DNA of 64,000 bases from a virus (lineage: Duplodnaviria > Heunggongvirae > Uroviricota > Caudoviricetes). The notes under the pieces are model-generated. The model ran no database searches. It saw only the letters and a list, made by a program, of their open reading frames with translations, and was not told the DNA's origin. The stretch lies in IMG/VR virus record IMGVR_UViG_3300025644_000002. One strand, given 5' to 3'. Made by a program: the position numbers and the translations under genes. Positions 42,383-57,634 of this stretch are shown piece after piece. Every line of letters starts with the position of its first letter. The first letter of the stretch is position 1.

Positions 42383-43246
42383 ATGCAAAAATTGCACTTC
42401 TTAATAATTGATCCACAAAACTCTTTTATGGATCGAAACAATGATTTAGTCTTACTTCAAAAAGCCGGCATAAATTTGGCGGATATAGGATTACGACTTC
42501 CAGAACCAGAATTACCGGTACCGGGGGCTTATGAGGACTCTGAGAGGTTAGCTATGGTGCTTAACCGCTTAAGAGGTAAAATTACTGGGATCCACGTGAC
42601 GCTAGATACCCACCAATTGTTGGATATTTCGCATCCATTATTTTGGATGAATAGTGCTGGAGAACATCCGGGCCCGTTTACACTTATAAGTCTAGACGAC
42701 TTAAACGGATCAGTTTGGACACCGACTAGCCCAGATCGAATTCCAAGAGCCAGAGCTTACCTGCAAGCTCTCCAAGACAACGACAGATACCTTCTGTGTA
42801 TATGGCCACCACATTGTAAAGTGGGCACATGGGGCCACAATGTAGTAGATGTTGTAAACGCAGAACTTGAAGCCTGGGAAGAAAGCAGAAAACGCAGAAT
42901 AAACTATGTTACAAAAGGACACAACCCTTGGACAGAACATTACTCTGGCGTTATTGCTGATGTACCTGACGATGAAGATCCTACTACGCAGTTAAACGTC
43001 ACTCTTTTAAAACTTTTAAAAGACGCAGACATAATTGCCCTTTCAGGTCAGGCTCTATCACACTGTGTAGCTAATACAGTTAAAGATATTGCAGACAACT
43101 TCGGAGAAGAGAATATCAAAAAACTAGTACTGCTTGAAGACACTTCTTCAAATGTTACTGGGTTTGAGAAATTGGGTACCGACTTTGTAACGGAAATGGT
43201 TTCACGCGGTATGCAGATCTGTAAAGCTGAAGACTTTTTGAAATAA
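42383..43246 (+). CDS. isochorismatase-family hydrolase, putative nicotinamidase (PncA-like)
   Basis: LIIDPQNSF resembles the isochorismatase/nicotinamidase N-terminal motif; fits the NAD salvage set. Confidence 0.45.
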   Translation: MQKLHFLIIDPQNSFMDRNNDLVLLQKAGINLADIGLRLPEPELPVPGAYEDSERLAMVLNRLRGKITGIHVTLDTHQLLDISHPLFWMNSAGEHPGPFTLISLDDLNGSVWTPTSPDRIPRARAYLQALQDNDRYLLCIWPPHCKVGTWGHNVVDVVNAELEAWEESRKRRINYVTKGHNPWTEHYSGVIADVPDDEDPTTQLNVTLLKLLKDADIIALSGQALSHCVANTVKDIADNFGEENIKKLVLLEDTSSNVTGFEKLGTDFVTEMVSRGMQICKAEDFLK

Positions 43247-43276
43247 ACAAACACACAAAGATAAAGGAGATTATCA

Positions 43277-44041
43277 ATGGTAGATACCATGCAAAGTGTG
43301 GACTTATTAGGAGCTGGAAATTTTAAGTTTTCAGCAATAGGCTTAGATGAACTAGAAGCCTCCGAATATACCTTAGTAGGTATAGTCGTTGACATTACCG
43401 GATCAGTGGGCGGTTATGAAACTATGTTACAAAAGATGATTGAAGAAATAGTGGGGGCATGTAAAATGTCTGCACGTTCTGAAAATCTACTTGTTAGGGT
43501 AACACTGTTTAATAGTCAGACTGATATTTTGGAAATCCATGGATTTAAGCCTGTAAACGATATAGATTTAAGTGAGTATTCAGGGAAATTAGTACCTGAC
43601 GCAGCTACTAACCTGTTTGATGCCACTTATGATATGATCGGATCAATTGAACAGTATGGTAAATCCCTAGCGGACCAGGAATACAGTGTAAATGCTGCCG
43701 TGTATGTTATTACAGACGGAGATGATAATTCTTCGACTATGACAGCCACTAATGTAAAGGACAGAATACACTCCATTAAACGTGCCGAAGAATCAATTGA
43801 ATCTTTAATTTCCGTATTAATCGGGATAGGCACAGACGGCAACCATGGTTGGGGCTCTAGGGTTTCACAACTATTAAAAGAGTTTAAAGATGATGCAGAC
43901 CTCACGCAATATATTGATGCGGGCAATGCAAATGCTAAAACTCTTGCAAAATTAGGGAATTTCATTAGCCAAAGCATTAGTTCACAGAGCCATTCACTTG
44001 GCACTGGCGGACCTTCTGCTCAAGCTAGTATGAAATTCTAA
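43277..44041 (+). CDS. von Willebrand factor A domain protein (TerY-like)
   Basis: MIDAS DITGSVGG…TDGDDN. Confidence 0.55.
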   Translation: MVDTMQSVDLLGAGNFKFSAIGLDELEASEYTLVGIVVDITGSVGGYETMLQKMIEEIVGACKMSARSENLLVRVTLFNSQTDILEIHGFKPVNDIDLSEYSGKLVPDAATNLFDATYDMIGSIEQYGKSLADQEYSVNAAVYVITDGDDNSSTMTATNVKDRIHSIKRAEESIESLISVLIGIGTDGNHGWGSRVSQLLKEFKDDADLTQYIDAGNANAKTLAKLGNFISQSISSQSHSLGTGGPSAQASMKF

Positions 44042-44072
44042 CTTACAAAACGTACGTAAGAAACGGCGTAAC

Positions 44073-44140
44073 GGGGCGGTATCTCAGCAGGGTAGAGTTA
44101 GGGGATACCCTAGACATTGGTTCGAATCCAATCCGCGCTG
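44073..44140 (+). tRNA. tRNA-like gene (68 nt) whose anticodon arm is replaced by a TAGGG-GATA-CCCTA tetraloop hairpin
   Basis: Acceptor GGGGCGG/CCGCGCT, D-arm, canonical T-arm ATTGG-TTCGAAT-CCAAT, but no 7-nt anticodon loop can be folded. Confidence 0.35.
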
Positions 44141-44169
44141 TTACGTTCGTTCTTATTAAAAGGAAAACT

Positions 44170-44949
44170 ATGAACATAGATTCACATTTTATTCAAGGGG
44201 CCACTCATCGGGTTTGTGAAGATTATACACTTCATGGGGAAACAGATGAGATAGCTTATATTATTGTATGTGATGGGTGTTCAAGCGCTCCTCACACAGA
44301 TTTTGGAGCTAGATTAATAGCCCATAGTGTAGAACAAGCCATTAGAGAATTTGGAGAGCTGACTCGTCAAAAATTAGAGTGGCAACTTCAATTATGTAAA
44401 GGTTATACTGATGTCCAAGGCCTGGACCGCCGTATGCTGCTGTCAACTGTGTTGGTAGCTATCTATAATAAAGAAAAACAAAGCTTTTATATTCTTATGG
44501 CCGGAGATGGACATTGTTTCTTAGATTCAAAAGAAGGACCGCTTCATATAGATATTCAATCACCTCATAATACTCCATACTATCCTGCGTATAACATTAC
44601 TCGAAAAGATCAGGAAGAATACAAAGAGTGTTTAAAGGACAAAGGACAAACAGTTGTTCACATGAATGATGGTGACGAGGATCCTACCAATGTAGCATTA
44701 GAAACTGGAATGCCCTTTATATTTCAGCCTGATTACCCGATAGCTTCGGTAATTTTAACTACTGATGGTATAGACCAAGTAATAGATAGGGATACTGGAG
44801 AGAGAGTAGTGATTGATGATATCATCACTCATTTCCCAAGTGCCGCAGGAGCATTCGCTGTAAGAAAACTAAGGTTTCTTAAGAAAACCTGGAATAGAAA
44901 TTATATTACTAACGCAGACGATATTGGAATTGCTGGAATAATATTATGA
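44170..44949 (+). CDS. PP2C-family Ser/Thr phosphatase
   Basis: VCDGCSSAPHTDFGA ~ PP2C xDGxGGxxxG motif; sits between the vWA and kinase genes. Confidence 0.5.
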   Translation: MNIDSHFIQGATHRVCEDYTLHGETDEIAYIIVCDGCSSAPHTDFGARLIAHSVEQAIREFGELTRQKLEWQLQLCKGYTDVQGLDRRMLLSTVLVAIYNKEKQSFYILMAGDGHCFLDSKEGPLHIDIQSPHNTPYYPAYNITRKDQEEYKECLKDKGQTVVHMNDGDEDPTNVALETGMPFIFQPDYPIASVILTTDGIDQVIDRDTGERVVIDDIITHFPSAAGAFAVRKLRFLKKTWNRNYITNADDIGIAGIIL

Positions 44950-46637
44950 AGGTTTTAGTACAAGGAAAGGGGCAAGTATCATTATTAGACTCTAATTTTG
45001 TAGCTCAAGGTGGAGAGGGTAAAGTATATGTAAAAGGTGGAAGAGCTTATAAAATATTTCATGACCCAAAAACTATGATACCTGAAGAAAAAATTAGGGA
45101 ACTGTCAGTTCTTACTAAGAATACCATTATAAAACCTGAGAATTTAATTTACACTACAAAAAACACGTTAATAGGATTTATGATGCAGACTGTACCTCAG
45201 TCTATTCCATTACCAAGAATGTTTACATCTGCGTATCTTAATAGAAACAATTTAAATAACGATACCGTTACTAAATTAGTTACAAATATTAAGGATACAA
45301 TTAGTCATGTGCACGATCATGACATAATAATGGTCGATGGTAACGAATTAAATTATTTAATAGAAACTAGAAAGCATACTACTGCTTATTGTATAGATGT
45401 AAACTCATGGCAAACTCCTAATTATCCAGCTACAGTAATTATGCCCTCTATTAGAGATTGGCATGCTACAGAATTCACAGAAATTTCAGATTGGTTTTCC
45501 TTCGCTGTAATAGCTTGTCAACTGTTTATAGGAATTCACCCATATAAGGGAAAGAATTCTCACTTTAAACGAGCTACATTAGAAGAACGTATGAGAGCAA
45601 ACGTATCAATCTTTAACCCTGAAACGCGTGTTCCGGGCGCAGTAAGGGACTTTACAAATATACCTAAGAGTTATTATGATTGGTTTAAAGAAGTATTTGA
45701 AAATGGTTATAGAAGTACTCCTCCAGACATGAAAGGGCAGTACATTATACTTCCAATAACTCCTATAATAACAACACACACCGGAAGCAAATATTTTACA
45801 ATACAACAATTAAACGATTATCCTGGCGACATAATTGACTGCACTTATTTTGGTAGACAGTATATAATATATACCAAAAAAGATGTTGTCATATATAACA
45901 ATAATAGTTATATTAAAGATACCACCTCCAAGGTTTTTTCACACAGTATGTCTCAAAAGACGTTTCTTGTGAAAACTAAGGATGAATCTTTAGTATACAG
46001 ATCATTGGAAGATAGCCAATCTCCTTATCATAGTACAAATATTAAGGTTGAAAAAACTATGATATACGAAAATAGGCTATATGGCGTAAACAAGGATAGA
46101 TTTTTTGAAATAGATGTATTAGATACCGGCTCAAAGCCTACGTTTTATATTTTAAATACTTGGGAAATATTCAATAATTCTACAGAAATGTTAGATGGAG
46201 TATTATGTTCTAGTATTTTAGGTAAAACTCATTTATATTTACCATACGCACCCAACAAATGTGCAATTGTAGCAATTCCTGAACTAGATAAGTACAAGAT
46301 AATTGATGCAAAATGCCGAGACAGGGTTTGTATGATAATAGGACAATCAGGCAGCAAGTATGATAAATTTATTATCGTATTCGATGAAAATTTCAAAAAA
46401 TATGATATAAGAATCTTGAAGGACGCAGATAATATGTTGAATTTTATCTGCCTACCTAACGGATTAACTATAAGTATACATGAAGATGGCGCTTTAGAAA
46501 TGTTTCGCGCTAAGGCTTCAAGTGATGTGCAGGTCTACAAAGACTCTGCCATCAAGTCGTCGATGACACTGGCCCACGAGGGCAATATTGTTCGGTTCTA
46601 TGAAATGAATCGGATGTATCAACTAAAAATGAAATAA
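44946..46637 (+). CDS. eukaryotic-like Ser/Thr protein kinase
   Basis: Gly-rich loop AQGGEGKVYV, AYKIF (VAIK-like), DWFSFAVIACQLFIGIHPYKG (DxWSxG…P). Confidence 0.55.
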   Translation: MKVLVQGKGQVSLLDSNFVAQGGEGKVYVKGGRAYKIFHDPKTMIPEEKIRELSVLTKNTIIKPENLIYTTKNTLIGFMMQTVPQSIPLPRMFTSAYLNRNNLNNDTVTKLVTNIKDTISHVHDHDIIMVDGNELNYLIETRKHTTAYCIDVNSWQTPNYPATVIMPSIRDWHATEFTEISDWFSFAVIACQLFIGIHPYKGKNSHFKRATLEERMRANVSIFNPETRVPGAVRDFTNIPKSYYDWFKEVFENGYRSTPPDMKGQYIILPITPIITTHTGSKYFTIQQLNDYPGDIIDCTYFGRQYIIYTKKDVVIYNNNSYIKDTTSKVFSHSMSQKTFLVKTKDESLVYRSLEDSQSPYHSTNIKVEKTMIYENRLYGVNKDRFFEIDVLDTGSKPTFYILNTWEIFNNSTEMLDGVLCSSILGKTHLYLPYAPNKCAIVAIPELDKYKIIDAKCRDRVCMIIGQSGSKYDKFIIVFDENFKKYDIRILKDADNMLNFICLPNGLTISIHEDGALEMFRAKASSDVQVYKDSAIKSSMTLAHEGNIVRFYEMNRMYQLKMK

Positions 46638-46649
46638 TCAAGACAACAA

Positions 46650-47036
46650 ATGAGCAATTTATACTCAAAATTAAGTGACGATAAAAAATATGATGCAGTA
46701 GACTTCGTACTGTACTGGAACGAGCCAAACGTAATGGTTGAGCTATTAGTACCAGGTTATCAGGCTTCTAACATTAAAATTAGAATAGCTAAGGCTGGAA
46801 CTGCGTTCGGCAATTCGCCTTCAACTCATGACCGCCTGTTAGTGACAGCTGGACCGGATAAAGAGATTGGTAAAGGAACTTTCTGTAAAGGTTTCTATAA
46901 CGAATTTCCATTACAGAACGGTGAACATTTTAATTATGGAAAATTAACTAGTTCGCTAGTTCGTGGTGTTTTAACCATCGCCATACCTGTAAAAGGGAAA
47001 TTCACTCCACAGGAGTTCACAGTTAGCGAAGGCTAG
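46650..47036 (+). CDS. Hsp20 / alpha-crystallin-family small heat shock protein
   Basis: …GKLTSSLVRGVLTIAIPVK C-terminal alpha-crystallin-like beta strands. Confidence 0.45.
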   Translation: MSNLYSKLSDDKKYDAVDFVLYWNEPNVMVELLVPGYQASNIKIRIAKAGTAFGNSPSTHDRLLVTAGPDKEIGKGTFCKGFYNEFPLQNGEHFNYGKLTSSLVRGVLTIAIPVKGKFTPQEFTVSEG

Positions 47037-47100
47037 CGCTTCTATGTAGATCGTCAATAAAAGACATTATAAAGCTTAACCGCTTTATATCTTTGAAATT

Positions 47101-47140
47101 AGGCCCGGCGATCACTCGCTGGGTCTTTTTTTTAACAATT
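47101..47140 (+). terminator. Rho-independent terminator (CCCGGCGA…TCGCTGGG + T9)
   Basis: ggcccggcgatcactcgctgggtcttttttttaac. Confidence 0.5.
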
Positions 47141-47161
47141 ATTAACAATAGGGAATTATAA

Positions 47162-47839
47162 ATGAGATTATTAATGAGAGCGTTAGTAGGAAGTAGATTG
47201 CATGGGTTAGATACTCCTATAAGTGATTTCGATTATAAAACTGTATTTATTGAGACTACTTCAAATATTTTAGCTTTACCAGAGCACCAGCCCAGCGATC
47301 CAAAGGATCCAGCAGATACCTGGGAATTAGCTAGATTTCTACATTTCGCATTAAGAAGTAATCCTACAATTCTGGAAACTTTTAAAGCGACATTTACTAC
47401 AGAAAACGAGAACTGGTGTGAAGAGTTAAGAAGTCTATTTCCAGACGTTTGGAGTTCTAAATTAGTTTTCCACTCGTACAGGGGTTATGCTCAATCGCAA
47501 CGCAAAAAGCTTTTAGAAAATGATGAAGCCCTTAGTAATGGAAATGTAGAATTAGATACCATTAGAAAAAGAAAATCATCAGCGGCCTGGTTAAGAATGT
47601 TATATAATGGATACGAACTATTACAAACTGGCGATTTTACAGCCAGAATAGCTGATACAGAAGTAGGCATTCTTTGCAGAAAATATAAGGAAGGCGAATC
47701 TACTATACCAGAGGTTATAAAAACTTGTAGCTCTTGGGAAGAAAAACTAGAAGACGCGTTTAATAAGTCTACAAAAAAAGAAGCTAACTCAAAATTAGTA
47801 AATGATTTTCTATTAAAAATAAGAAAAGTTTCTTGGTAA
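47162..47839 (+). CDS. minimal nucleotidyltransferase (Pol-beta superfamily)
   Basis: GSRLHGLDTPISDFDY matches GS…SDxD. Confidence 0.45.
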   Translation: MRLLMRALVGSRLHGLDTPISDFDYKTVFIETTSNILALPEHQPSDPKDPADTWELARFLHFALRSNPTILETFKATFTTENENWCEELRSLFPDVWSSKLVFHSYRGYAQSQRKKLLENDEALSNGNVELDTIRKRKSSAAWLRMLYNGYELLQTGDFTARIADTEVGILCRKYKEGESTIPEVIKTCSSWEEKLEDAFNKSTKKEANSKLVNDFLLKIRKVSW

Positions 47840-47840
47840 T

Positions 47841-47911
47841 GCGGCTATCGTCTAATGGTAGGACACAACCTTGCCATGGTTGGAATGTCGGTTCAAATCC
47901 GTCTAGCTGCT
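47841..47911 (+). tRNA. tRNA-Gly (GCC)
   Basis: Acceptor GCGGCTA/TAGCTGC, anticodon loop TTGCCAT. Confidence 0.65.
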
Positions 47912-47932
47912 CAAATAAATAGAAAGGGCAAC

Positions 47933-48202
47933 ATGAGTTATAAACACAATCAACGACAACACGCTGTAAAAAGATTTGAAGAGCGTTATGATATTACGTT
48001 GACCAAAAAGCTAAGAAAAGAATTATTGAATAGAATTAGGAACGAGTATAACGACCAAGGAGTAAGCGTTCTAGAAAAAGTAGGACACAGGTTAGTTATG
48101 ATTATTGAGCAAAATAGCATTAGATACAAAGTAGTATATGATAAGAAAACTAATGAAATTGTCACAGCTTTACCAATTAAAGCGGCTATGGTCCAACGGT
48201 AA
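47933..48202 (+). CDS. hypothetical protein (89 aa, MSYKHNQRQHAVKRFEERYDI…)
   Basis: Track ORF 47855..48202 begins inside the tRNA; ATG at 47933. Confidence 0.45.
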   Translation: MSYKHNQRQHAVKRFEERYDITLTKKLRKELLNRIRNEYNDQGVSVLEKVGHRLVMIIEQNSIRYKVVYDKKTNEIVTALPIKAAMVQR

Positions 48203-48252
48203 GACTTCTGACTTCCACTCAGACGATGAGAGTTCGATTCTCTCTAGTTGCT
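48182..48252 (+). tRNA. tRNA-Gly (TCC)
   Basis: Acceptor GCGGCTA/TAGTTGC (two GU pairs), anticodon loop CTTCCAC; overlaps the 3' end of the preceding CDS. Confidence 0.6.
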
Positions 48253-48274
48253 CAAATAAAACCAATAAAAAACA

Positions 48275-48670
48275 ATGGCAAGTTATGAAAAGAAAACAGT
48301 TAAAATAATAATAGCACACCCGTATGATTATGATGATCTAGAAGGAAAACTTGAAGACGTACAAGAGGTACTAAGGCACATCATAGCTCTTTCTAGACAA
48401 CAGACAGGGGTAGACAACCCAGATGTGAGGTTTACCGCAGTTTGTAGCCAGTTCAACTCGTGGGACGATAGGATAGAGCTCGACGAATTAGAGGTTAGCG
48501 TGAGTCGAAAAGAGACGGATGAGGAATTTACTATTAGAACGAATGTATTAAAAGATAGAGCAAAAAAATCTGAAATAACTAGAAAGCGAAACGCGACAAG
48601 ACGGAAGAATAAGAAAGAAAAAGACGATTTTGAGCTTTATAAACAATTGGAAAAAAGATTTAAAAAATAA
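48275..48670 (+). CDS. hypothetical charged protein (131 aa)
   Basis: ORF track. Confidence 0.45.
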   Translation: MASYEKKTVKIIIAHPYDYDDLEGKLEDVQEVLRHIIALSRQQTGVDNPDVRFTAVCSQFNSWDDRIELDELEVSVSRKETDEEFTIRTNVLKDRAKKSEITRKRNATRRKNKKEKDDFELYKQLEKRFKK

Positions 48671-48679
48671 GGAAAGCTA

Positions 48680-48919
48680 ATGTCACAAAAATCAAACTCT
48701 AACAAACAGGGTAGAGACAAAATAAAATGCCAACGATACCTGGGGCGTGAAACACGGGAAATGAACATAGCAAGACGAATTGTAAAATTTGCAACAAGCA
48801 AACCAGGGCACAAAGGTAAAGAGGTTAAAATTGCGTTACATATGGCTAGTCAAAATAAACAGCCTGTAATTACAAAACTACATGTAAATCGTATTTTAAA
48901 ACAAAAGAACCTTCTATAG
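48680..48919 (+). CDS. small basic protein (79 aa)
   Basis: ORF track. Confidence 0.4.
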   Translation: MSQKSNSNKQGRDKIKCQRYLGRETREMNIARRIVKFATSKPGHKGKEVKIALHMASQNKQPVITKLHVNRILKQKNLL

Positions 48920-48956
48920 AAGATTCTAGTTTTTTGACATAGAGAGAAAAAATTAA

Positions 48957-49029
48957 TGGGGGCTCATCCAACGTAAAGGACGTCTGCAGAGGCAGGCGAA
49001 TGTGGGTTCAAATCCCACACCCCCAACCA
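48957..49029 (+). tRNA. tRNA-like gene with encoded ACCA, a canonical T-arm, and a 7-bp CGTCTGC/GCAGGCG + AGAG tetraloop hairpin in place of the anticodon arm
   Basis: TGGGGGC…ACCCCCA-A-CCA; GTGGG-TTCAAAT-CCCAC; no 5+7+5 anticodon arm can be folded. Confidence 0.35.
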
Positions 49030-49031
49030 AC

Positions 49032-49103
49032 GCCGTGGTCGTCTAATGGTAAGACGCTCTTAGTCCGCTAAGAGAAATGGAGGTTCAACTCCTTCCCTAG
49101 GCT
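49032..49103 (+). tRNA. tRNA-like gene with a non-canonical anticodon arm (CTCTT-AGTCCGCT-AAGAG, 8-nt loop, or a 6-bp stem with 6-nt loop)
   Basis: D-arm TCGTCTAATGGTAAGACG, T-arm GGAGG-TTCAACT-CCTTC, acceptor GCCGTGG/CCTAGGC with 2 mismatches. Confidence 0.35.
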
Positions 49104-49112
49104 CTAATTTAT

Positions 49113-49185
49113 AGGGTGGAAGTGTTAATGGTAACACGCCGGCCTGTCACGCCGGAGACTGCGGGTTCGATCCCCGTGCGCTCTG
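49113..49185 (+). tRNA. tRNA-Asp (GTC)
   Basis: Anticodon arm CCGGC-CTGTCAC-GCCGG; acceptor AGGGTGG/GCGCTCT (2 GU pairs, 1 mismatch). Confidence 0.6.
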
Positions 49186-49210
49186 CGAAATAAAAAGAAA
49201 GGACAACGTT

Positions 49211-49447
49211 ATGATGGGAATTATAGTACTTCTCATACCAGTGGGAATTATATTTGGGCTTGGAACTATGTTCCTAGTAATGTCGCTAATGCCAAAGTAT
49301 ACAAAGAAAGCCGGATGGGCAAAAACATATGGACTAGCTTGTTATGCCATTTGTGGAATCGTGTGGTATCTTTTAATACTTTCATGGGCCGAATCAGAAG
49401 TAGTCATGGCAGAAGAAGAAAAACAAGCAACAGAACAAACAGAATAA
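49211..49447 (+). CDS. small membrane protein (78 aa)
   Basis: ORF track; two TM helices. Confidence 0.45.
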   Translation: MMGIIVLLIPVGIIFGLGTMFLVMSLMPKYTKKAGWAKTYGLACYAICGIVWYLLILSWAESEVVMAEEEKQATEQTE

Positions 49448-49453
49448 ATTAAT

Positions 49454-49527
49454 GGGGTTGTAGCTCAGTCTGGGAGAGCAACTGCTTTGCACGCAGAGGG
49501 TCAGGGGTTCAAATCCCCTCTTCTCCA
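49454..49527 (+). tRNA. tRNA-Ala (TGC)
   Basis: Anticodon loop TTTGCAC; D-arm TAGCTCAGTCTGGGAGAGC; acceptor GGGGTTG/CTTCTCC has T5-T68 and T6-T67 mismatches. Confidence 0.55.
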
Positions 49528-49539
49528 CTCATTAATAAC

Positions 49540-49611
49540 GGCGCATTCGTCTAATGGCTAGGACACCAGGTTTTCAGTCTGGGTACAGGAGTTCGATTCT
49601 CCTATGCGCTA
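49540..49611 (+). tRNA. tRNA-Glu (TTC)
   Basis: Anticodon arm CCAGG-TTTTCAG-TCTGG; acceptor GGCGCAT/ATGCGCT. Confidence 0.65.
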
Positions 49612-49637
49612 CGAAGGTAACAAACCAGAAAAATAAA

Positions 49638-49874: not shown

Positions 49875-49886
49875 CTAAATAGGTTT

Positions 49887-50388: not shown

Positions 50389-51092
50389 AAAATAAAATAT
50401 TTGTACTGGGAGACGTACATGGTAATTACCAGGGCATGCTCCAATGTTTCGAACGTTCTAACTTCAATTATGAGGAGGATACATTAGTCTTTCTTGGCGA
50501 TATAAATGACGGGTGGCCAGATACGGCAAAGTGTTTCGAAGAACTTTTAAAGATTAAGAATTTAATATAGGTTATAGGTAATCACGACGTATGGCTACTT
50601 GGGTGGTTAGAATATGGACAAACTCCCTCATTGTGGACTAGACAAGGTGGTATGGCTACAATTGCCAGCTACGTGTCAGCCCCACTAGAATGGAGAACTA
50701 AGCACCTACATTATCTACGTAACAAAACAGTATTTTACCACATCGATGATGAGAACAAAATCTACGTACACGGAGGATTCGATCAAAAGGTCCCTATCCG
50801 GGATCAGGATCCGTATAATTTGTATTGGAATCGTCACATCATTGAAGTGGCAAAAATTTACGTAACTCAAAAGCGTGAATTTAAAGATTATAAAGAGGTA
50901 TTCGTTGGGCATACAACTACAGGAATGTTTGGAACGGATAAACCTTTAAATATTTCCAATCTATGGATGTTAGACACCGGATCAGGTTGGGAAGGAAAAC
51001 TTACTATCATGGATGTAAATACGCATGAGTACTGGCAATCAGACTTATCAGAAGATTTATATCCGAACGACTACCATGGAAGAGAACGATAA
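50385..51092 (+). CDS. ApaH / PP-lambda-type metallophosphoesterase interrupted by a single in-frame TAG (50568-50570)
   Basis: Motif 1 GDVHG and motif 2 FLGDINDGWPD lie before the TAG; motif 3 VIGNHD lies immediately after it in the same frame; VHGG and GHT follow. Track ORFs 50385..50570 and 50631..51092 are the two halves. Confidence 0.6.
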
Positions 51093-51099
51093 TTAAGTT

Positions 51100-51182
51100 G
51101 GGCAGCTGGCCGAGCGGTCAAAAGCGCCAGATTGTAGATCTGGTCCCTACGGGGTTCGGAGGTTCGAATCCTTCTCTGCCCA
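51100..51182 (+). tRNA. tRNA-Tyr (GTA), class II
   Basis: Anticodon arm CCAGA-TTGTAGA-TCTGG; long variable arm; acceptor GGGCAGC. Confidence 0.65.
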
Positions 51183-51213
51183 CACTTTTAAATAATAAAA
51201 ATCAAACTAACAA

Positions 51214-51675
51214 ATGAAAAACACAAACCAAATAATTTTCTCCGCAAAGAAGCCATCAGGCTATGATCAATATTTTTCTAATTTTGCACATTCCCCTATT
51301 ACTATAGAAGGTATTGAATATCCAACAGTAGAGCATGCGTTTCAAGCACATAAAACATTTAATAACACAATACGTAAAGAAATAGCACAGTTAAAAACCC
51401 CTGGCAAATCTAAACGTGCGGGTAATAAAGTAAATCTTCGCCCAGATTGGGAAGAAGTAAAATATGACATTATGGTTATGTGCTTAAGAGAAAAATTCAA
51501 AATAGATCTTTACAAAAAGATTTTACTATGTACACAAGATGCAGAATTAATAGAAGACGCGGCTGAATGGAACGACGCAATATGGGGCATCGGAAAAAAT
51601 GGTAAAGGTACAAACCTTTTAGGAAAAGCATTAATGAAAGTAAGAAAGGAACTAAAAGAAAATGAATGGAAGTAA
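51214..51675 (+). CDS. NADAR-domain protein (YbiA-like)
   Basis: EYPTVEHAFQAHK…W…NLLGKALMKVR matches the NADAR/DUF1768 signature. Confidence 0.55.
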   Translation: MKNTNQIIFSAKKPSGYDQYFSNFAHSPITIEGIEYPTVEHAFQAHKTFNNTIRKEIAQLKTPGKSKRAGNKVNLRPDWEEVKYDIMVMCLREKFKIDLYKKILLCTQDAELIEDAAEWNDAIWGIGKNGKGTNLLGKALMKVRKELKENEWK

Positions 51676-51997
51676 AAAAGGATTTACAATAATAGAACTA
51701 ATTATTGTTCTAGTAATTGCAGGGATTATAGGCTCAGTGGCAATACCAAAGCTTTTTAATTCTGGTGTTATAGATGCGAATGGTACGAAAACAGAATTAG
51801 GTTATGGAAATGATTCTAGAACTACCTATACTCTTACAGTTTATGACAAAGCTTATAATATTAAATATGACAAAGAATACTTAGCGGATCGTGTGTCAAT
51901 AGGTGACAACAAACTAACTTTTTTTGTCAATGGCGAAATAGTTCAAGTAATTAATATTCCCGAGGCACGTTGGGAAATACTCGAGAAGGTTTATTAA
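51662..51997 (+). CDS. prepilin-like protein (type IV pilin-type N-terminus)
   Basis: KKGFTIIELIIVLVIAGIIGSVAIP class III signal/pilin N-terminal helix. Confidence 0.45.
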   Translation: MNGSKKGFTIIELIIVLVIAGIIGSVAIPKLFNSGVIDANGTKTELGYGNDSRTTYTLTVYDKAYNIKYDKEYLADRVSIGDNKLTFFVNGEIVQVINIPEARWEILEKVY

Positions 51998-52135
51998 TGA
52001 GTGAGGTTATACTACCTTTAGAAGCTACCATAGATGAGGATTTACAACTTATTTTGGAAACCAAATTTGGAAATGGCAGACTAACCCTTACAGATATACT
52101 TCTATTACAAATTTGTAGAAAACTCGATAAACTTA

Positions 52136-52429
52136 ATGGAGAGGAAACAGATGTTTAAATTAAAAGTAGATGACGTTATAACGGTACGAGCTAGTACTGG
52201 CGAAGACCACATTCCGTCATACTGGACACAACGTAGGTGGGCAATAACTAAAGTTAGTCCCACTAAAATAGACGTTCAAGGATACGATAACTACGGTTGG
52301 AGAAAGATAGCAGAAAGACACTTTTTATTGAAAGACTATGCTATCGAGCGTTGTATAATAGAGGTGGTTGACGGTTCTTCCAGCCTAACCGTATTACGTA
52401 CAATACACTCTGGAAAGGATACCAAATAA
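52136..52429 (+). CDS. hypothetical protein (97 aa)
   Basis: ORF track. Confidence 0.4.
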   Translation: MERKQMFKLKVDDVITVRASTGEDHIPSYWTQRRWAITKVSPTKIDVQGYDNYGWRKIAERHFLLKDYAIERCIIEVVDGSSSLTVLRTIHSGKDTK

Positions 52430-53574
52430 TGTTAATTAATTCAATTTTAGATAACGACATATATAAATTTACACAACAAATGTTTGTTTGTCAGCAATTT
52501 CCAAACCTGGAAGTAGAATACAAGTGGATATTGAGAACTCCAGTTGAGTTTAGTGACTCGTTTGCTACAAAATTGATAAGCAATATTAACGCAATGGGAT
52601 CACTACGGTTAACTGATTCAGAAGCAACTTTTTTAAAAAAGAAATGTTATTATTTCACTCCCGTGTATAGGGACTTTTTAAAAGGGTATGCGTATGACTC
52701 TTCTGAAGTAGAAGTAATTTATGAACCCGGTAAACAACATCAATTTGAGATATGTATTAGAGGTCCCTGGTATAGGACTATACTGTGGGAAGTACCTATT
52801 ATGGCTATTATTTCAGAGATGTCTAATGGGGAATTAAGCCCGCTGTATGAGTTAGAAAAACAGAATATAGAAAAATTGAGAATTATACACGATAATCATT
52901 TAAGCGTAGCCGACTTCGGAACTAGACGAAGGCACTCTTATGACGTACATGATAAAACTCTTAATATTTTAAAGCATGGATTGGTAGGAACCTCTAATGT
53001 TCATTTTGCCAAAAAATATAATTTAACCCCAACAGGTACACAAGCTCACGAAGTATATATGGTCTTATCACGCCTATACGGTTACAAGATGGCAACTACT
53101 ATGGTATTAGAGAAATGGGTAGAAGTGTTTCAAGGAAGTCTGGGAACAGCTTTACCAGATACCTTTACTACAGACGTTTTTCTTAAAGAATTTGCCATGA
53201 AGTATTCTAAACTATTTGACGGTGTGAGGCAAGACAGTGGGGACCCGCTTGTGTTTGCTAACAAAATTATTAACCACTATGAGCATTTAAACATTGATCC
53301 GAAAAGTAAATTAATAATCTTTTCAGACAGTTTAAATCTCGAAAAAGCGGTACACATCGAAAAAGAAGTGAATAAGCACATTAAAACGGCTTACGGAATT
53401 GGTACCAACTTCACTAATGATACAGACGTTACACCATTGAATATGGTAATCAAAATTAACGCTGTTAAATTAAATGATGTATGGGAACCAGCTATTAAGT
53501 TGTCAGATTCCCCGGGAAAACATACAGGCGATCCAGACGAGATTGCGTTATGTAAACAAATATTAAAGGTTTAA
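52429..53574 (+). CDS. pncB: nicotinate phosphoribosyltransferase (PncB)
   Basis: LDNDIYKFTQQMFV, GPWYRTILWEVPIMAIISE, FGTRRRHS, TPTGTQAHE, RQDSGDP, KLSDSPGK all match E. coli PncB blocks. Confidence 0.75.
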   Translation: MLINSILDNDIYKFTQQMFVCQQFPNLEVEYKWILRTPVEFSDSFATKLISNINAMGSLRLTDSEATFLKKKCYYFTPVYRDFLKGYAYDSSEVEVIYEPGKQHQFEICIRGPWYRTILWEVPIMAIISEMSNGELSPLYELEKQNIEKLRIIHDNHLSVADFGTRRRHSYDVHDKTLNILKHGLVGTSNVHFAKKYNLTPTGTQAHEVYMVLSRLYGYKMATTMVLEKWVEVFQGSLGTALPDTFTTDVFLKEFAMKYSKLFDGVRQDSGDPLVFANKIINHYEHLNIDPKSKLIIFSDSLNLEKAVHIEKEVNKHIKTAYGIGTNFTNDTDVTPLNMVIKINAVKLNDVWEPAIKLSDSPGKHTGDPDEIALCKQILKV

Positions 53575-53576
53575 AT

Positions 53577-53606
53577 ACGTGGGGGCCAAGCGTCCCCACT
53601 TTTAAA
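53577..53606 (+). terminator. Rho-independent terminator (GTGGGGG…TCCCCAC + TTTT)
   Basis: cgtgggggccaagcgtccccactttt. Confidence 0.5.
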
Positions 53607-53610
53607 TAGA

Positions 53611-53694
53611 GCTGGTGTTACCTGAGCGGTCGAAAGGTCCTGATTTGTAATCAGGTGACGAAAGTCCACGTAGGTTCGAATCCTACCATCAGCC
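53611..53694 (+). tRNA. class II tRNA (Ser-like body, GAAA-capped variable arm) with anticodon loop TTTGTAA = anticodon UGU
   Basis: Acceptor GCTGGTG/CATCAGC, D-stem ACCT/AGGT, anticodon stem CCTGA/TCAGG, variable arm TGACGAAAGTCCAC, T-arm GTAGG-TTCGAAT-CCTAC. Confidence 0.45.
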
Positions 53695-53695
53695 C

Positions 53696-53780
53696 GTTGT
53701 CGGTGGCAGATTTGGTAATGCACTCGGCTGTGACCCGAGTTGGAGTTGCTCCTCATGCGGGTTCAAATCCCGTCCGACAC
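53696..53780 (+). tRNA. tRNA with a GUG (His) anticodon, a possible G-1, a T1:C72 mismatch and an unusually long variable arm
   Basis: Anticodon arm ACTCGG-CTGTGAC-CCGAGT; variable hairpin GGAG-ttg-CTCC; T-arm GCGGG-TTCAAAT-CCCGT. Confidence 0.45.
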
Positions 53781-53804
53781 CCCAATTAACTTAGGAACTA
53801 AAAA

Positions 53805-54161
53805 ATGAAAAATCCAAAATATATAGTCAGGCCAGACGATTCCTATATATGGGAATTAGACGAATCAAACAATTGCTATAGAAGCTATAAACCTATAAAA
53901 TATTCAGACGGCACAAGAGCAAACGCTCATGACAACTACACCTTTAAACGTTTAACAGAAATTTATGACTTTTTTCCTATTGAAGAAGACGAATTAGCGA
54001 AATATGAAGCTAAATGCAAGGATCATTATGCCTTTGTTGGTTGGCAGATCAGATCAGACGGTCACGGAGGGTGCAAAGGCGGAACTCGAGCCGAGTATGA
54101 GATATATTTGGAAAGAGTTGAACGTTACCAGAAATGGAAAAAAGAAGAAGGAATTGAATAA
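53805..54161 (+). CDS. hypothetical protein (118 aa)
   Basis: ORF track. Confidence 0.45.
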   Translation: MKNPKYIVRPDDSYIWELDESNNCYRSYKPIKYSDGTRANAHDNYTFKRLTEIYDFFPIEEDELAKYEAKCKDHYAFVGWQIRSDGHGGCKGGTRAEYEIYLERVERYQKWKKEEGIE

Positions 54162-54665
54162 TTGAAAGTAATATTTTTAGATATCGACGGCGTACTCAAT
54201 AATCGTGAGTCGGTACATAAACGACATGAAGAAAAGTTAGGAAATGTATGGCTTCCAGACATAACGCTAGTAGAACGCTTAAAGCAAATAATTGACGCAA
54301 CTGGAGCACAAATAGTAGTATCCTCAACTTGGAGACTTCATGGTGATTCATTTATGTTTAGACATCTATTTGCTGCCTTGGGATTCAATTTACCCTTCGT
54401 AATAGGGAAGAGTACCCCAAGACTACATAAAAGAAGAGGCATAGAAATTCAACAATGGCTTGATGAGCATAATGCCGAATACGACGCAGATCCTGAGTTC
54501 TCTAAAGAACATTACCACGAAAGAGCCGATTCCTTCATAATTTTGGACGATGACTCAGACATGGAGCATTTAATGGATCGACTAGTACAAACAAAAACAG
54601 ATTTAGGTCTACAAGATGAGCATGTAGAACAAGCAATTAAATTATTAAATACTCCGGCGGGGTAG
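54162..54665 (+). CDS. HAD-superfamily phosphatase
   Basis: Motif I FLDIDGVLN; TTG start per track. Confidence 0.5.
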   Translation: MKVIFLDIDGVLNNRESVHKRHEEKLGNVWLPDITLVERLKQIIDATGAQIVVSSTWRLHGDSFMFRHLFAALGFNLPFVIGKSTPRLHKRRGIEIQQWLDEHNAEYDADPEFSKEHYHERADSFIILDDDSDMEHLMDRLVQTKTDLGLQDEHVEQAIKLLNTPAG

Positions 54666-54727
54666 CTCAGGGGTAGAGCGGTGGATTGAAGATCCACGCG
54701 ACGGTGGTTCGATTCCATCTTTCGCCA
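54656..54727 (+). tRNA. tRNA-Phe (GAA)
   Basis: Anticodon arm GTGGA-TTGAAGA-TCCAC; D-arm TAGCTCAGGGGTAGAGC. Confidence 0.65.
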
Positions 54728-54821
54728 CAGACTCATCTGCCATCGCTTGCGTGTAAGAGCAGAAGGAGATGGGAGCGCGCAATATAATAACTGCAGAAAA
54801 AAGTATCGCGTCGCTCTTTAC

Positions 54822-54914
54822 GGAGAGGTGTAAGAGAATGGTATTCTGCCGGTCTTGAAAACCGGTGCGCCCCCGCAAGGGGGTCTGCAGGTTCGATCCC
54901 TGTCCTCTCCTCCA
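54822..54914 (+). tRNA. tRNA-Ser (TGA), class II, CCA encoded
   Basis: Acceptor GGAGAGG/CCTCTCC is perfect; anticodon arm CCGGT-CTTGAAA-ACCGG; variable arm GCGCCCCCGCAAGGGGGTC. Confidence 0.7.
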
Positions 54915-54987
54915 GGGCCTTTAGCTCAATTGGCTGAGCAACACACTCATAATGTGTAGGATGCTGGTTCGAGTCCAGCAGGGCCCA
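54915..54987 (+). tRNA. tRNA-Met (CAT), elongator type
   Basis: Acceptor GGGCCTT/AGGGCCC; anticodon arm ACACA-CTCATAA-TGTGT. Confidence 0.7.
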
Positions 54988-55035
54988 CAAAAAAAATGGT
55001 TAGGTGATGTAATTGGGAAACATCTTCGCGTAGTA

Positions 55036-55120
55036 GGCTGTTCGACTCAGTAACACTTCAGTAGATATACTATATAGTGGACGCATGGTGCGTATGCAGG
55101 TTCGAGTCCTGTCCTAGCCA
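55036..55120 (+). tRNA. class II tRNA-like gene or pseudogene (85 nt) with no foldable anticodon arm
   Basis: T-arm GCAGG-TTCGAGT-CCTGT, variable hairpin ACGCA-tgg-TGCGT, acceptor GGCTGTT/CCTAGCC with 2 mismatches; the anticodon region is ATATACTATAT. Confidence 0.25.
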
Positions 55121-55297
55121 CTAATAACAAAGAGGATAAATGAAAGAAAAGAAAGAAAAACCACAAGTCACATGGACTGGGTTTCTAAAATTATGGGCTA
55201 TTGGAGATGATCAAAAACGAGCCAAAGAAAAAGCTAAATTGTTAAAAACTTATAACAATATCCAAGATGATTTAAACAGTAAAAAAGGAAAGGAACA

Positions 55298-55696
55298 GTG
55301 ATAAACAGAGTATTTTTAGGAGGCACTTGCGCACATACAACCTGGAGGAATCAAATAATTCCTCAACTAACTATAGACTACTTTAATCCAGATGTGGAAG
55401 ACTGGACAGAGGCGTGCCAAGCAATAGAAATGGATGAAAAAGACAATAAATGTAATGTACATTTTTATCTTATTTCTAAAGAAATGCAAGGAGTATTTTC
55501 CATAGCAGAAGTTGTAAATAGCGCACACACCCACGGCAAACGAACTATATTGCACGTTAGGCCTGATGGATTTGATAAAGGACAGCTCAAAAGTTTAAAA
55601 GCTACTGTAGAGTTAGTAAATGCTGCAGGAGGAATAGCTTACATAGATAACAACATACACAGGGCGGTTACCATATTAAACAACTGCTTTGCTTAA
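55298..55696 (+). CDS. hypothetical protein (132 aa) adjacent to the NAD genes
   Basis: ORF track; GTG start. Confidence 0.4.
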   Translation: MINRVFLGGTCAHTTWRNQIIPQLTIDYFNPDVEDWTEACQAIEMDEKDNKCNVHFYLISKEMQGVFSIAEVVNSAHTHGKRTILHVRPDGFDKGQLKSLKATVELVNAAGGIAYIDNNIHRAVTILNNCFA

Positions 55697-55713
55697 TTTA
55701 AAAAGGAAAACAG

Positions 55714-56505
55714 ATGAAACTTAGACAAGACATAATTGACTTACAAGATTTTATAAAAAGAACAGTAGAAGATGCAGGTGCTGATGGGGTAGTCATAGGA
55801 TTATCTGGAGGAGTAGACTCCGCAGTAATTGCGGCTTTAGCTCAAAGAGCTTTAGGGCCAGAGAAGGTTATGGCGGTGTGGCTGCCTTACCATGAAACAG
55901 TTATTCCCTCAATATCTAATTTATTTCATGGAGCTGATAATATACTAGCTCTTGCAAAACATCTCCAATTAAACCTTAATTGTATAGATATTACCACTTC
56001 TGTAGACGCCATGATAGAGGGTATGACTTATATCCAAACAGAGGCAATAACTACCCTCACAAAAGGGAATATGAAAGCCCGGGCCCGCATGTCTGCACTG
56101 TACCTGCTAGCAAATAGTACCAATAACCTCGTAATAGGAACAACTAACAAGTCTGAATACGAAATAGGGTACTTTACTAAATATGGAGACGGTGGAGTAG
56201 ATTTTGAACCATTGTTAGAGTTTTACAAATTTGAAGTTAGAGAAATAGCTAGAGAATTAGAGCTACCTAACGAATATGCAAATGCGGTAGCTTCTGCGGG
56301 ATTATGGGAAGGACAAACTGATGAACAAGAATTTGGATTTACATACCAAGAACTAGATTCTTATTTGATTTGGTGGAGTACTATGGACTGTGAAAATGTA
56401 CCATCTCCGGTTTCTGTAGAAGTTATGAATAATATCGAAAGTATGATAAACAATAGCCGTCATAAACGCGATAATATTCCAAGCTTTTTAAGGGACATAG
56501 CCTAA
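55714..56505 (+). CDS. nadE: NH3-dependent NAD+ synthetase (NadE)
   Basis: PP-loop GLSGGVDSAV. Confidence 0.7.
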   Translation: MKLRQDIIDLQDFIKRTVEDAGADGVVIGLSGGVDSAVIAALAQRALGPEKVMAVWLPYHETVIPSISNLFHGADNILALAKHLQLNLNCIDITTSVDAMIEGMTYIQTEAITTLTKGNMKARARMSALYLLANSTNNLVIGTTNKSEYEIGYFTKYGDGGVDFEPLLEFYKFEVREIARELELPNEYANAVASAGLWEGQTDEQEFGFTYQELDSYLIWWSTMDCENVPSPVSVEVMNNIESMINNSRHKRDNIPSFLRDIA

Positions 56506-57098
56506 TGCCAAAAATTAAGATTAAATTTGTATCAGACGCTTTAATAGAGCCCCAACATGTAATAGCTGAAACATTAAATCTAGAAAATGAAGCTGGAGAA
56601 ACTACTGATTGGGAAATAGTTAGAAGAATTGGAAACCAAAAGTCTGTAGCGGGAGTATTTCATGACCGCTCTGGAAGATTCTTACTAATTAAGGAGTGGA
56701 GACCTGCGTTAGATAACTACATTTGGTCATTTCCAGCAGGTATGATAGAAGAGGGAGAAACTCCAGAAGACGCTATGCGTAGAGAATTGTTGGAGGAAAC
56801 TGGATATGAAGTAGACGGGGCTTGTAGAGTATTTCCTGCAGCCATCAATACCGCAGGAATGTCAGATGAAGCAACTCATTTAGTAATGGGAGCTTTAGGA
56901 AGTTACTTACCAGAGCAACAGTCGTTAGGAGACTTTGAAGATATAGACCAAATAATCTTAATTAATGGTTATAATTTACTTAGTTTCATAGCCTCTGAAA
57001 AAGCAAAAAAAGTAGAAATCTCAAGCAGACTTCTGTCATTTGCAGCAGGATTATCTTTTATGGAATCTCCAAATTACGAATATATAAGGATGAAATAA
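56505..57098 (+). CDS. Nudix hydrolase
   Basis: Nudix box PAGMIEEGETPEDAMRRELLEETG. Confidence 0.65.
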   Translation: MPKIKIKFVSDALIEPQHVIAETLNLENEAGETTDWEIVRRIGNQKSVAGVFHDRSGRFLLIKEWRPALDNYIWSFPAGMIEEGETPEDAMRRELLEETGYEVDGACRVFPAAINTAGMSDEATHLVMGALGSYLPEQQSLGDFEDIDQIILINGYNLLSFIASEKAKKVEISSRLLSFAAGLSFMESPNYEYIRMK

Positions 57099-57634
57099 TG
57101 AGAACAATTCACATATACGGGGGGTCATTTGATCCTCCTCACTTGGGACATATGGCAGCTGTTGAATACTTAAATAATAAAATATATAACTCCGAATACC
57201 CTAGTTCAGATTTATTACTTATTTGCCCGTCATTTAATCCCTTTAAAATAGAACAACCTCTTCAAAGCGATTACAACGACAAAGTAGCAATGTGTGCTAA
57301 AGCTTTCCCAAATAACTTTATATTACATTATAACCATACGTATATGATGAGTTTAATTAATCATATACAGATTATGTATTATAATGTGAATATTGTAATT
57401 TATGTAGGCGATGATGATACTGGGTTAGAAGTTCATAAGTGGCAGGATATTGATGAAATTAAAAAATGCGCAGCTATAGAGTCGATTGATTTAGGAAAGA
57501 TTTCAGAGTATACTCACGCAAGTAGCGGTAAAGTTAGAGAACACATTTGTAAAGCTGAGTATGAGTTGGCTGGAAGATTACTCGACGGAAGTATCTTTGG
57601 CTATATTATAGGACATCAACTATATAAAGAATAA
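57098..57634 (+). CDS. nadD: nicotinate/nicotinamide mononucleotide adenylyltransferase (NadD-like)
   Basis: GGSFDPPHLGH (HxGH nucleotidyltransferase motif). Confidence 0.65.
   Translation: MRTIHIYGGSFDPPHLGHMAAVEYLNNKIYNSEYPSSDLLLICPSFNPFKIEQPLQSDYNDKVAMCAKAFPNNFILHYNHTYMMSLINHIQIMYYNVNIVIYVGDDDTGLEVHKWQDIDEIKKCAAIESIDLGKISEYTHASSGKVREHICKAEYELAGRLLDGSIFGYIIGHQLYKE

Follow-up and report, generated by a model that had tools for sequence, protein, structure and literature searches.

Depletion of NAD+ (nicotinamide adenine dinucleotide) is a major bacterial anti-phage strategy, and the question raised by the locus described here is whether a phage may carry the whole of the classical deamidating route by which NAD+ is rebuilt from nicotinamide, and whether that route stands alone or under a control of its own. 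The locus lies in viral DNA of the IMG/VR record IMGVR_UViG_3300025644_000002 (the window, meaning the whole stretch analysed: 64 kb, about 37% G+C), and an earlier note on this DNA had read six open reading frames (ORFs, starting at 42383, 51214, 52429, 55714, 56505 and 57098) as a distributed, complete Preiss-Handler pathway accompanied by a Nudix hydrolase and a NADAR-domain protein. All six are present at these positions on the + strand, and as predicted from sequence the four enzymes leading from nicotinamide via nicotinate, nicotinate mononucleotide (NaMN) and nicotinate adenine dinucleotide (NaAD) to NAD+ are indeed all encoded. The gene identities are strong hidden Markov model (HMM) matches and not chance motif matches, and the same gene set recurs in other phage contigs. 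The gene at 42383 is however not the stand-alone PncA for which it had been taken, since it stands first in a conserved module whose other genes (43277-46637), by far its most constant neighbours, code for a vWA-domain protein, a PP2C phosphatase and a Ser/Thr kinase. We consider it moderately probable that the window specifies the whole deamidating pathway leading from nicotinamide to NAD+, in which the four-gene module acts as a phosphorylation switch and which serves to keep NAD+ up during infection. The genes in question are the following:

42383-43246, + strand: PncA-like isochorismatase-fold hydrolase, 287 amino acids, first gene of the four-gene module
43277-44041, + strand: vWA-domain protein (YegL/TerY-like), 254 amino acids, with a metal ion-dependent adhesion site (MIDAS) motif; partner of the PncA-like gene
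44170-44949, + strand: PP2C-type phosphatase, 259 amino acids, matching PF13672 at 5.3e-13
44946-46637, + strand: Ser/Thr-kinase-like protein, 563 amino acids, its start overlapping the PP2C stop codon; weak match to PF00069 (2e-4)
52429-53574, + strand: PncB, nicotinate phosphoribosyltransferase, 381 amino acids, with NAPRTase domains PF17767 and PF04095
55714-56505, + strand: NadE, NH3-dependent NAD+ synthetase, 263 amino acids, a single domain with no glutaminase domain
57098-57634, + strand: divergent NadD-type nicotinate-mononucleotide adenylyltransferase, 178 amino acids, its start overlapping the Nudix stop codon

The case for a nicotinamidase at 42383 is made largely through its family. 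The window sequence falls below the Pfam threshold of PF00857 (Isochorismatase), but 23 of 25 family members match this model, and a profile of the 25 sequences matches solved nicotinamidases, namely yeast Pnc1 at 2.5e-9 and three others below 1e-3. The family is large, the 42383 protein having over 3,000 homologs, and standard annotation often calls its members hypothetical. An AlphaFold2 model of the protein (pLDDT 92, on the predicted local distance difference test) furthermore has, as its top 11 Foldseek matches in the PDB, only nicotinamidases, which come from six organisms (E 5e-13 to 3e-9, target TM-score 0.74-0.81, query TM-score about 0.6 with large insertions), and other amidases of the superfamily rank below the nicotinamidases in profile and fold searches alike. 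The earlier note had made its reading depend on a Cys/Asp/Lys triad, and this triad is present: in the HMM alignment D10, K178 and C228 fall on the Pnc1 motifs VDMQNDF, DKG and ALEYCV, and in addition D75/H77 (LDTHQ) and H144 (WPPHC) align as a metal site with RDWHP and LWPVHC of Pnc1. To our knowledge such an Asp/His/His site, made up of DxH and the His of WPxHC, distinguishes nicotinamidases from other isochorismatase-fold amidases. Of 161 homologs from viruses and bacteria, down to about 35% identity, 160 keep the residues D10/K178/C228, D75/H77/H144 and F15/W141. The protein thus shares with bacterial PncA and yeast Pnc1 the isochorismatase fold, the Asp-Lys-Cys triad, the metal site and the QNDF, WPxHC and ALxxCV motifs, and differs from them in being 16-19% identical to solved nicotinamidases, about 70 residues longer by way of two insertions, below the PF00857 threshold and constantly paired with a vWA gene. 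The family also recurrently neighbours PncB, NrtR and SIR2 genes, which lends indirect support to a putative hydrolysis of nicotinamide to nicotinate.

It could alternatively be held that the protein is a related Cys-hydrolase of some other amide, be it nicotinamide mononucleotide (NMN), nicotinamide riboside or an ADP-ribose-derived or signalling molecule, acting in a separate vWA-PP2C-kinase system, in which case the window would lack the first step of the route. Such a notion is in agreement with the low identity to solved nicotinamidases, with the large insertions and modest query TM-score, with the fact that no curated model matches the protein directly and with the finding that the most constant partners of the family are signalling-type proteins and not PncB. 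We nevertheless regard it as unlikely, given that the metal residues and the aromatic F15 and W141 are invariant, that nicotinamidases outrank other amidases of the family in both kinds of search, that PncB, the metabolic gene which recurs beside it in phages as well as bacteria, acts on the nicotinate formed, and that the link to NrtR and SIR2 suits nicotinamide as the substrate.

The enzymes of the later steps are recognised with less detour. PncB scores 424 bits on NF003704 (cutoff 379) and 387 on TIGR01514 (cutoff 269), and NadE scores 228 bits on PF02540 (8.6e-68) and 224 on TIGR00552 (cutoff 64), with 247 bits on NF010587 placing it just below the cutoff of 255. On sequence grounds the 57098 protein is a divergent member of the NadD family, because it has the motifs of that family, has no matches in NCBIfam and the PDB other than NadD-type models and enzymes, and has relatives whose profile finds a solved NadD. 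The motifs are GGSFDPPHLGH at residues 8-18, with the HxGH signature, and SSGKVR at residues 142-147, corresponding to the SxTxxR signature. A word-indexed homolog search returned just the identical protein and an exhaustive HMMER search 220 relatives; all 36 of the relatives sampled match NadD models of NCBIfam, and the profile of these 36 together with the window NadD matches Bacillus subtilis NadD (1kam) at 1.3e-50, ahead of NMNAT and PPAT. NadE, the Nudix gene and NadD are joined by consecutive overlapping stop and start codons.

The three partners of the nicotinamidase-like gene came to light through its homologs, since at the first loci inspected these were always followed by an unannotated gene of ~250 amino acids homologous to the ORF at 43277-44041. 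The window vWA protein is 45-48% identical to the partner proteins of phage and bacterial loci, members of its family carry PF00092 or PF13519 (the JGI name is YegL), the MIDAS positions D39, S43, T111 and D147 are conserved, and the model (pLDDT 91) has integrin I and vWA domains as its best fold matches. In the phosphatase the metal-position aspartates D18, D35, D199 and D250/D251 are kept in at least 95% of 128 homologs, and in the kinase the G-loop GGEG, the beta-3 lysine K36, D131/N136 and the DFG-equivalent D151 are kept in at least 95% of 91 homologs. Because these catalytic and metal-binding residues are conserved, kinase and phosphatase are both probably active enzymes. Sequence searches of the PDB gave no match for the vWA profile or the PP2C protein and only a marginal one (E=0.13) for the kinase.

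The link between this module and NAD metabolism stands independently of the window. Relatives of the nicotinamidase were confirmed in species genomes (335) and in viral contigs (92), 80 of each were examined, and genes within 10 kb either side of the PncA-like gene were counted as neighbours. The counts rest on profile searches; single-linkage clustering was dropped, overlapping-frame ORFs having fused vWA, PP2C and NrtR. The neighbours were found as follows:

vWA: viral loci 75/80, bacterial loci 31/80
PP2C: viral loci 70/80, bacterial loci 58/80
Kinase: viral loci 70/80, bacterial loci 23/80
PncB: viral loci 20/80, bacterial loci 11/80
NadE: viral loci 23/80, bacterial loci 2/80
NadD: viral loci 15/80, bacterial loci 1/80
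Nudix: viral loci 17/80, bacterial loci 5/80
NrtR: viral loci 12/80, bacterial loci 40/80
SIR2: viral loci 0/80, bacterial loci 31/80

PncA-like, vWA, PP2C and kinase genes are collinear in this order in 62 of the 80 viral loci, and 30 of them have one or more of PncB, NadE and NadD within 10 kb, with 9 having all three. Four viral loci (L032, L064, L070 and L076) even have the order PncA-like, vWA, PncB, NadE, PP2C, NadD, kinase, so that salvage and putative switch genes are interleaved, and in three others (L036, L051 and L063) the module is preceded by PncB and NadE and followed by NadD. Bacterial loci come in two layouts, one (Competibacteraceae) with SIR2 divergently upstream of PncA-like, PP2C and NrtR genes, and one (Rhodoferax, Accumulibacter, Armatimonadota and others) with NrtR divergently upstream of PncA-like, vWA, PP2C and kinase genes, to which PncB and NadE are sometimes added; in L151 and L159 NrtR, PncA-like, vWA, PP2C, kinase, PncB and NadE follow one another in order. 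NrtR is a Nudix-related, ADP-ribose-responsive repressor of NAD genes and sirtuins release nicotinamide, and neighbours of these two kinds therefore fit an enzyme that consumes nicotinamide. Among 50,697 annotated phage records these genes are rare, with PncB in 13, this nicotinamidase family in 4 and NadE in 55, and all three are found together in the huge-phage assemblies LR756500 and LR756511.

Two loci with the GTDB titles of Promethearchaeota and Thermoplasmatales metagenome-assembled genomes (MAGs; L143 and L150) hold a phage-type module along with Rnl2 or NADAR genes and are probably mis-binned phage contigs. Another phage contig with the module (L010, 15748-16533) has a NADAR gene between PP2C and kinase, and about 2 kb downstream a gene for an anti-Pycsar Apyc1-like protein of the metallo-beta-lactamase fold, as would fit a counter-defence island.

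The vWA, PP2C and kinase genes recall the TerY-P triad, which reportedly goes back to Anantharaman et al. 2012. In the summary given in eLife 2024 (PMC11090510) this triad consists of a TerY-like vWA protein, a PP2C phosphatase and a Ser/Thr kinase with a C-terminal zinc ribbon, or an OB (oligonucleotide/oligosaccharide-binding) fold in the defence variant, and TerY-P-like triads occur in bacteria as stand-alone anti-phage systems and also beside restriction systems. Since defence cassettes are moreover often carried by phages, the window module could be seen as a phage-borne TerY-P-like cassette for defence or superinfection exclusion, with the NAD genes nearby through incidental clustering in one island. 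This seems very unlikely to us, for PncB, NadE and NadD are interleaved among the triad genes in several independent contigs, the bacterial copies adjoin NrtR and do not lie in defence islands, the window vWA and kinase match no PADLOC model, and the C-terminus of the kinase appears unlike those of the described TerY-P kinases.

Besides the four enzymes and the switch genes, three further ORFs with a possible bearing on NAD+ or nucleotide metabolism stand in the same part of the window:

51214-51675, + strand: NADAR-domain protein, 153 amino acids, heading a tight block that ends in PncB
55298-55696, + strand: nucleoside 2-deoxyribosyltransferase-like protein, 132 amino acids, 17 nt upstream of NadE; PF15891 39.5 bits (cutoff 30)
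56505-57098, + strand: Nudix hydrolase, NUDT5-like ADP-ribose/ADP-sugar pyrophosphatase, 197 amino acids, its start overlapping the NadE stop codon; PF00293 60 bits

The Nudix protein aligns over its full length with NUDT5 (residues 10-191) at 2.6e-15 and with bacterial ADP-ribose pyrophosphatases at about 1e-11, and its Nudix box GX5EX7REUXEEXGU is intact; it reaches no equivalog cutoff of NCBIfam, and ADP-ribose or an ADP-sugar is the substrate suggested by these alignments. The NADAR protein scores 106 bits on PF08719 (cutoff 35) and 104 on TIGR02464 (YbiA-type N-glycosidase, cutoff 74), and 68 bits on the anti-phage NADAR model NF053876, which is well under the cutoff of 240. Reversal of DarT-type ADP-ribosylation had been proposed for it in the earlier note, and given the surrounding RNA-repair and tRNA genes other roles are equally plausible. 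The deoxyribosyltransferase-like ORF possibly belongs to the same operon as NadE and may encode a nucleotide N-glycosidase; it has no sequence match in the PDB and is not found near the module in the other viral loci. The end of the NADAR gene is overlapped by a small ORF (51662-51997) whose motif, PF07963, is that of prokaryotic N-terminal methylation (type IV pilin-like), and a gene for a DUF7831 protein (PF25176, 66 bits; phrog_2072) at 57638-58021 begins 3 nt past the NadD stop and ends the NadE-Nudix-NadD string.

It is possible, though somewhat doubtful, that NADAR and Nudix serve RNA repair or ADP-ribose detoxification and not NAD+ salvage, clearing ADP-ribose derivatives or ADP-ribosylated nucleic acids that arise from tRNA- or RNA-targeting conflicts. 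Both genes are surrounded by tRNAs and genes of RNA repair, just 8 of the 80 viral loci have NADAR within 10 kb of the module, and a survey of jumbo phages (PMC7824862) has proposed that NADAR, Macro and Nudix proteins degrade ADP-ribose-derived signals or toxins and join in NAD+-dependent RNA repair. Against this it should be mentioned that the Nudix gene is translationally coupled between NadE and NadD, that Nudix genes recur near the module in the 17 loci counted above, and that the window yielded neither a KptA/Tpt1 nor a Macro gene. Such a role would in any case be limited to two accessory genes and is compatible with the salvage route proposed here.

What the sequences show directly is which genes are present, that their catalytic residues are conserved, how they are ordered and that they co-occur; the enzyme activities, the target and regulation of the switch and the role in counter-defence are what we infer from this, and the scheme may be imagined as follows. 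The PncA-like enzyme would convert nicotinamide to nicotinate and NH3, PncB would use nicotinate, phosphoribosyl pyrophosphate (PRPP) and ATP to form NaMN, the NadD-like enzyme would turn NaMN and ATP into NaAD, and NadE would complete NAD+ from NaAD, NH3 and ATP, for which the ammonia of the PncA-like step could be used. The NUDT5-like Nudix protein might split ADP-ribose into AMP and ribose-5-phosphate, the latter being a precursor of PRPP by way of host Prs; this enzyme is taken to be the host's because the window showed no Prs of the phage's own. Together, vWA, PP2C and kinase would then most plausibly act on the entry enzyme, or on the route as a whole, as a controlling phosphorylation switch or as a scaffold, with the MIDAS-bearing vWA protein as its binding or scaffold subunit. 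In bacteria the module would appear to belong to a response to NAD+ consumption, since the bacterial copies lie in ADP-ribose-responsive NrtR loci or beside SIR2, and in phages it may maintain NAD+ during infection, most plausibly when host NADase defences free nicotinamide and ADP-ribose. A bolder version of this proposal, which we offer tentatively and hold to be on the unlikely side, is that the seven genes for PncA-like protein, vWA, PP2C, Ser/Thr kinase, PncB, NadD and NadE make up one unrecognised phosphorylation-gated NAD+ regeneration system of bacteria and large phages, controlled by NrtR in bacteria and amounting in phages to a fourth, regulated reconstitution pathway against NADase immunity, in which kinase, phosphatase and vWA sense NAD+ breakdown and either switch the nicotinamidase or assemble the salvage enzymes.

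Several observations weigh against the proposal of a switched and complete salvage route. The earlier note looked to HMMs for confirmation of each enzyme, and this came directly for PncB, NadE, Nudix and NADAR; NadD however lies below every curated NadD cutoff (at best 46 bits on TIGR00482, against 112), and the 42383 protein, for which Pfam (with E allowed up to 10), NCBIfam, PHROGs and PADLOC all give no direct match, is supported through family profile and structure. Its about 70 extra residues relative to canonical PncA could moreover mean that its substrate differs. As for the switch, the absence of PADLOC matches for vWA and kinase counts here as well, and the C-terminal region of the kinase, about 300 amino acids, has no Cys-rich zinc-ribbon pattern and would seem to be neither the zinc ribbon nor the OB fold of the described TerY-P kinases. 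The NAD genes of the window furthermore do not form one operon, being scattered across 15 kb with tRNA genes and RNA-repair genes in between, and in 50 of the 80 viral loci the module is found with no Preiss-Handler gene within 10 kb, from which it follows that it can work without PncB, NadD and NadE of the phage. Finally, removal of nicotinamide could relieve product inhibition of host NADases, with no obvious benefit to the phage.

The window derives from a large (over 200 kb) marine phage, as concluded from its 22 tRNA genes, its RNA-repair kit and the existence of matching contigs over 200 kb. Proteins identical to those of the window are found on dozens of marine metagenome contigs, the longest of 211,738 bp, and megablast of the whole region against the 50,697 phage records gave no matches. 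A copy of the window proteins is also held by a Candidatus Scalindua MAG in NCBI, which is probably mis-binned. From about 20 kb on nearly all genes lie on the + strand, and those related to NAD fall into three tight blocks with tRNA and RNA-repair genes between them:

38203-42328: Rnl1-type RNA ligase, PHA02142/Rnl2-type RNA ligase and PNKP (kinase plus HAD phosphatase), directly upstream of the nicotinamidase module
42383-47036, + strand: block 1, with PncA-like, vWA, PP2C and kinase genes and a small ORF (46650-47036)
47101-47126, + strand: strong terminator-like hairpin ending block 1, with an 11-bp stem, 7 GC pairs and a T tract (a consensus match only)
51214-53574, + strand: block 2, with NADAR, three small ORFs and PncB
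53579-53599, + strand: terminator-like hairpin directly 3' of PncB, with an 8-bp stem, 6 GC pairs and a T tract
55298-58021, + strand: block 3, with the deoxyribosyltransferase-like ORF, NadE, Nudix, NadD and DUF7831

A promoter scan of the window was uninformative (69 sites against 55 expected), and Pfam scans including 30 further ORFs found none of Prs, NadV, PnuC, NadR, Macro, KptA and SIR2 in the window. Around the NAD genes lies a conflict kit of the jumbo-phage type, comprising the two RNA ligases, PNKP, RlaP, a SAK-type HAD phosphatase, a Thg1-like enzyme, an RNase T-like exonuclease and a SpoU methylase, and these RNA-repair genes agree with the repertoire reported for jumbo phages (PMC7824862). 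Genes for NAD salvage and tRNA repair tend to co-reside in one island, since about 16 of the other viral loci also have an Rnl2-type ligase gene or RlaP no more than 10 kb from the module.

Some features of the surroundings may be recorded in passing. The Thg1-like tRNA-His guanylyltransferase/3'-5' polymerase (PF04446, 82 bits) and the RNase T-like exonuclease, at 27169-27888 and 30811-31338, carry the RNA-repair kit far upstream of the NAD genes. Two neighbouring SPFH/Band 7 (prohibitin-like) genes for proteins of 307 and 319 amino acids at 31542-33427 stand just ahead of a tRNA cluster, a pair that is unusual for a phage. A tRNA-like gene at 49032-49104, itself within a tRNA cluster, has an undetermined anticodon ('cc' at position 34), which may reflect an odd anticodon loop or a degenerate tRNA. 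The tRNA that ARAGORN finds at 62186-62262, next to a tRNA-Leu(TAG), has the anticodon CTA (labelled Pyl) and is of the amber-suppressor type; it could hint at TAG read-through or stop-codon recoding in part of the phage genome.

These surroundings bear on a more general explanation, namely that NAD+ salvage is metabolic support by auxiliary metabolic genes in nutrient-poor marine hosts, raising the NAD+ available for replication and repair of the phage, irrespective of NADase immunity. Jumbo phages with NAD genes have been viewed in this light (Microbiome 2024, PMC11662467), their NAD+ synthesis being paired with NAD+-consuming enzymes of the phage itself, and it is in keeping with such a role that the bacterial counterparts of the module lie in housekeeping NAD regulons with NrtR or SIR2 and that the phage is widespread in marine metagenomes. 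The dense conflict neighbourhood with its two RNA ligases, PNKP, RlaP, SAK-HAD, Thg1 and 22 tRNAs speaks for a different purpose, however, the window yielded no phage enzyme that consumes NAD+, and other phage routes to NAD+ have been shown to counter NADase defences. As the sole function of the genes, metabolic support therefore strikes us as possible and rather less than probable, and it should be added that support and counter-defence are compatible and do not exclude each other.

The interest of the locus lies in the following. Three pathways by which phages rebuild NAD+ have been experimentally shown and none of them takes the classical deamidating route, whereas that route is found in full in the window and in at least nine other viral contigs, and both in phages and in the NAD regulons of bacteria its entry enzyme is linked with a vWA protein, a kinase and a phosphatase. 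Provided the link is functional, a regulated fourth route would be added to the phage counter-defence repertoire and an undescribed layer of post-translational control to bacterial NAD salvage, and the finding will gain in interest if the kinase/phosphatase/vWA layer proves to gate the regeneration of NAD+. The main addition is the seven-component view of the system, whose four-gene module has previously gone unremarked in many big phages and bacterial NAD regulons.

Genes for NAD+ synthesis such as NadV, NadM and NadR have long been noted in phages, and the pathways NARP1 (Adps and Namat), NARP2 (NadV and NatV) and NARP3 (PnuC and NadR) have been demonstrated by experiment against NADase defences. 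NARP3 was considered as a possible identity of the present pathway and is ruled out, consisting as it does of PnuC and NadR. All three share with the window the proposed aim, namely that during infection NAD+ is rebuilt from precursors or from the products of its breakdown. They are however routes of two steps, whereas the window would encode a four-step deamidating route via nicotinate, NaMN and NaAD, at a cost of about three ATP and PRPP, with enzymes that are not homologous to Adps or Namat of NARP1; and they are experimentally validated, whereas the route of the window is a predicted one and has an apparent layer of kinase, phosphatase and vWA added to it. Nothing relevant to PncA in phage counter-defence was found in the searchable literature.

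With the NrtR regulons of bacteria the system shares its neighbourhood, in that the bacterial module adjoins NrtR in half of the loci examined and sometimes PncB and NadE as well. The phage window on the other hand has no NrtR, and its Nudix protein, in which a winged-helix domain is missing, has the look of an active enzyme. The searchable literature yielded no account in which vWA, PP2C or kinase genes belong to an NrtR regulon. The likeness to TerY-P triads lies in the three domain types and their order vWA, PP2C, kinase, in the intact MIDAS and in the predicted activity of both enzymes. The window triad differs in being preceded by a nicotinamidase-like gene and tied to NAD salvage and NrtR, where TerY-P is tied to genes for restriction and tellurite resistance, and in being phage-borne as well. 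The searchable literature, which did not cover the original TerY-P description, gave no instance of a nicotinamidase constantly paired with a TerY-P-like triad.

The closest relatives of the system are found among jumbo phages with Preiss-Handler clusters of pncB, nadD and nadE (e.g. Kuafu_71), which have been reported on bioinformatic grounds with seawater among their habitats, phage pncA being mentioned in passing (PMC11662467). Because of that report the idea of Preiss-Handler salvage in phages is itself not new. These phages and that of the window have in common a large genome and clustered PncB, NadD and NadE. The report is however a gene census and draws no link to vWA, PP2C or kinase, and in comparison with its phages the genes of the window are spread over 15 kb and include a nicotinamidase of a divergent family, which standard models miss in the window sequence. 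It is this predicted nicotinamidase step which would take the route back to nicotinamide, the very product of NADase defences.

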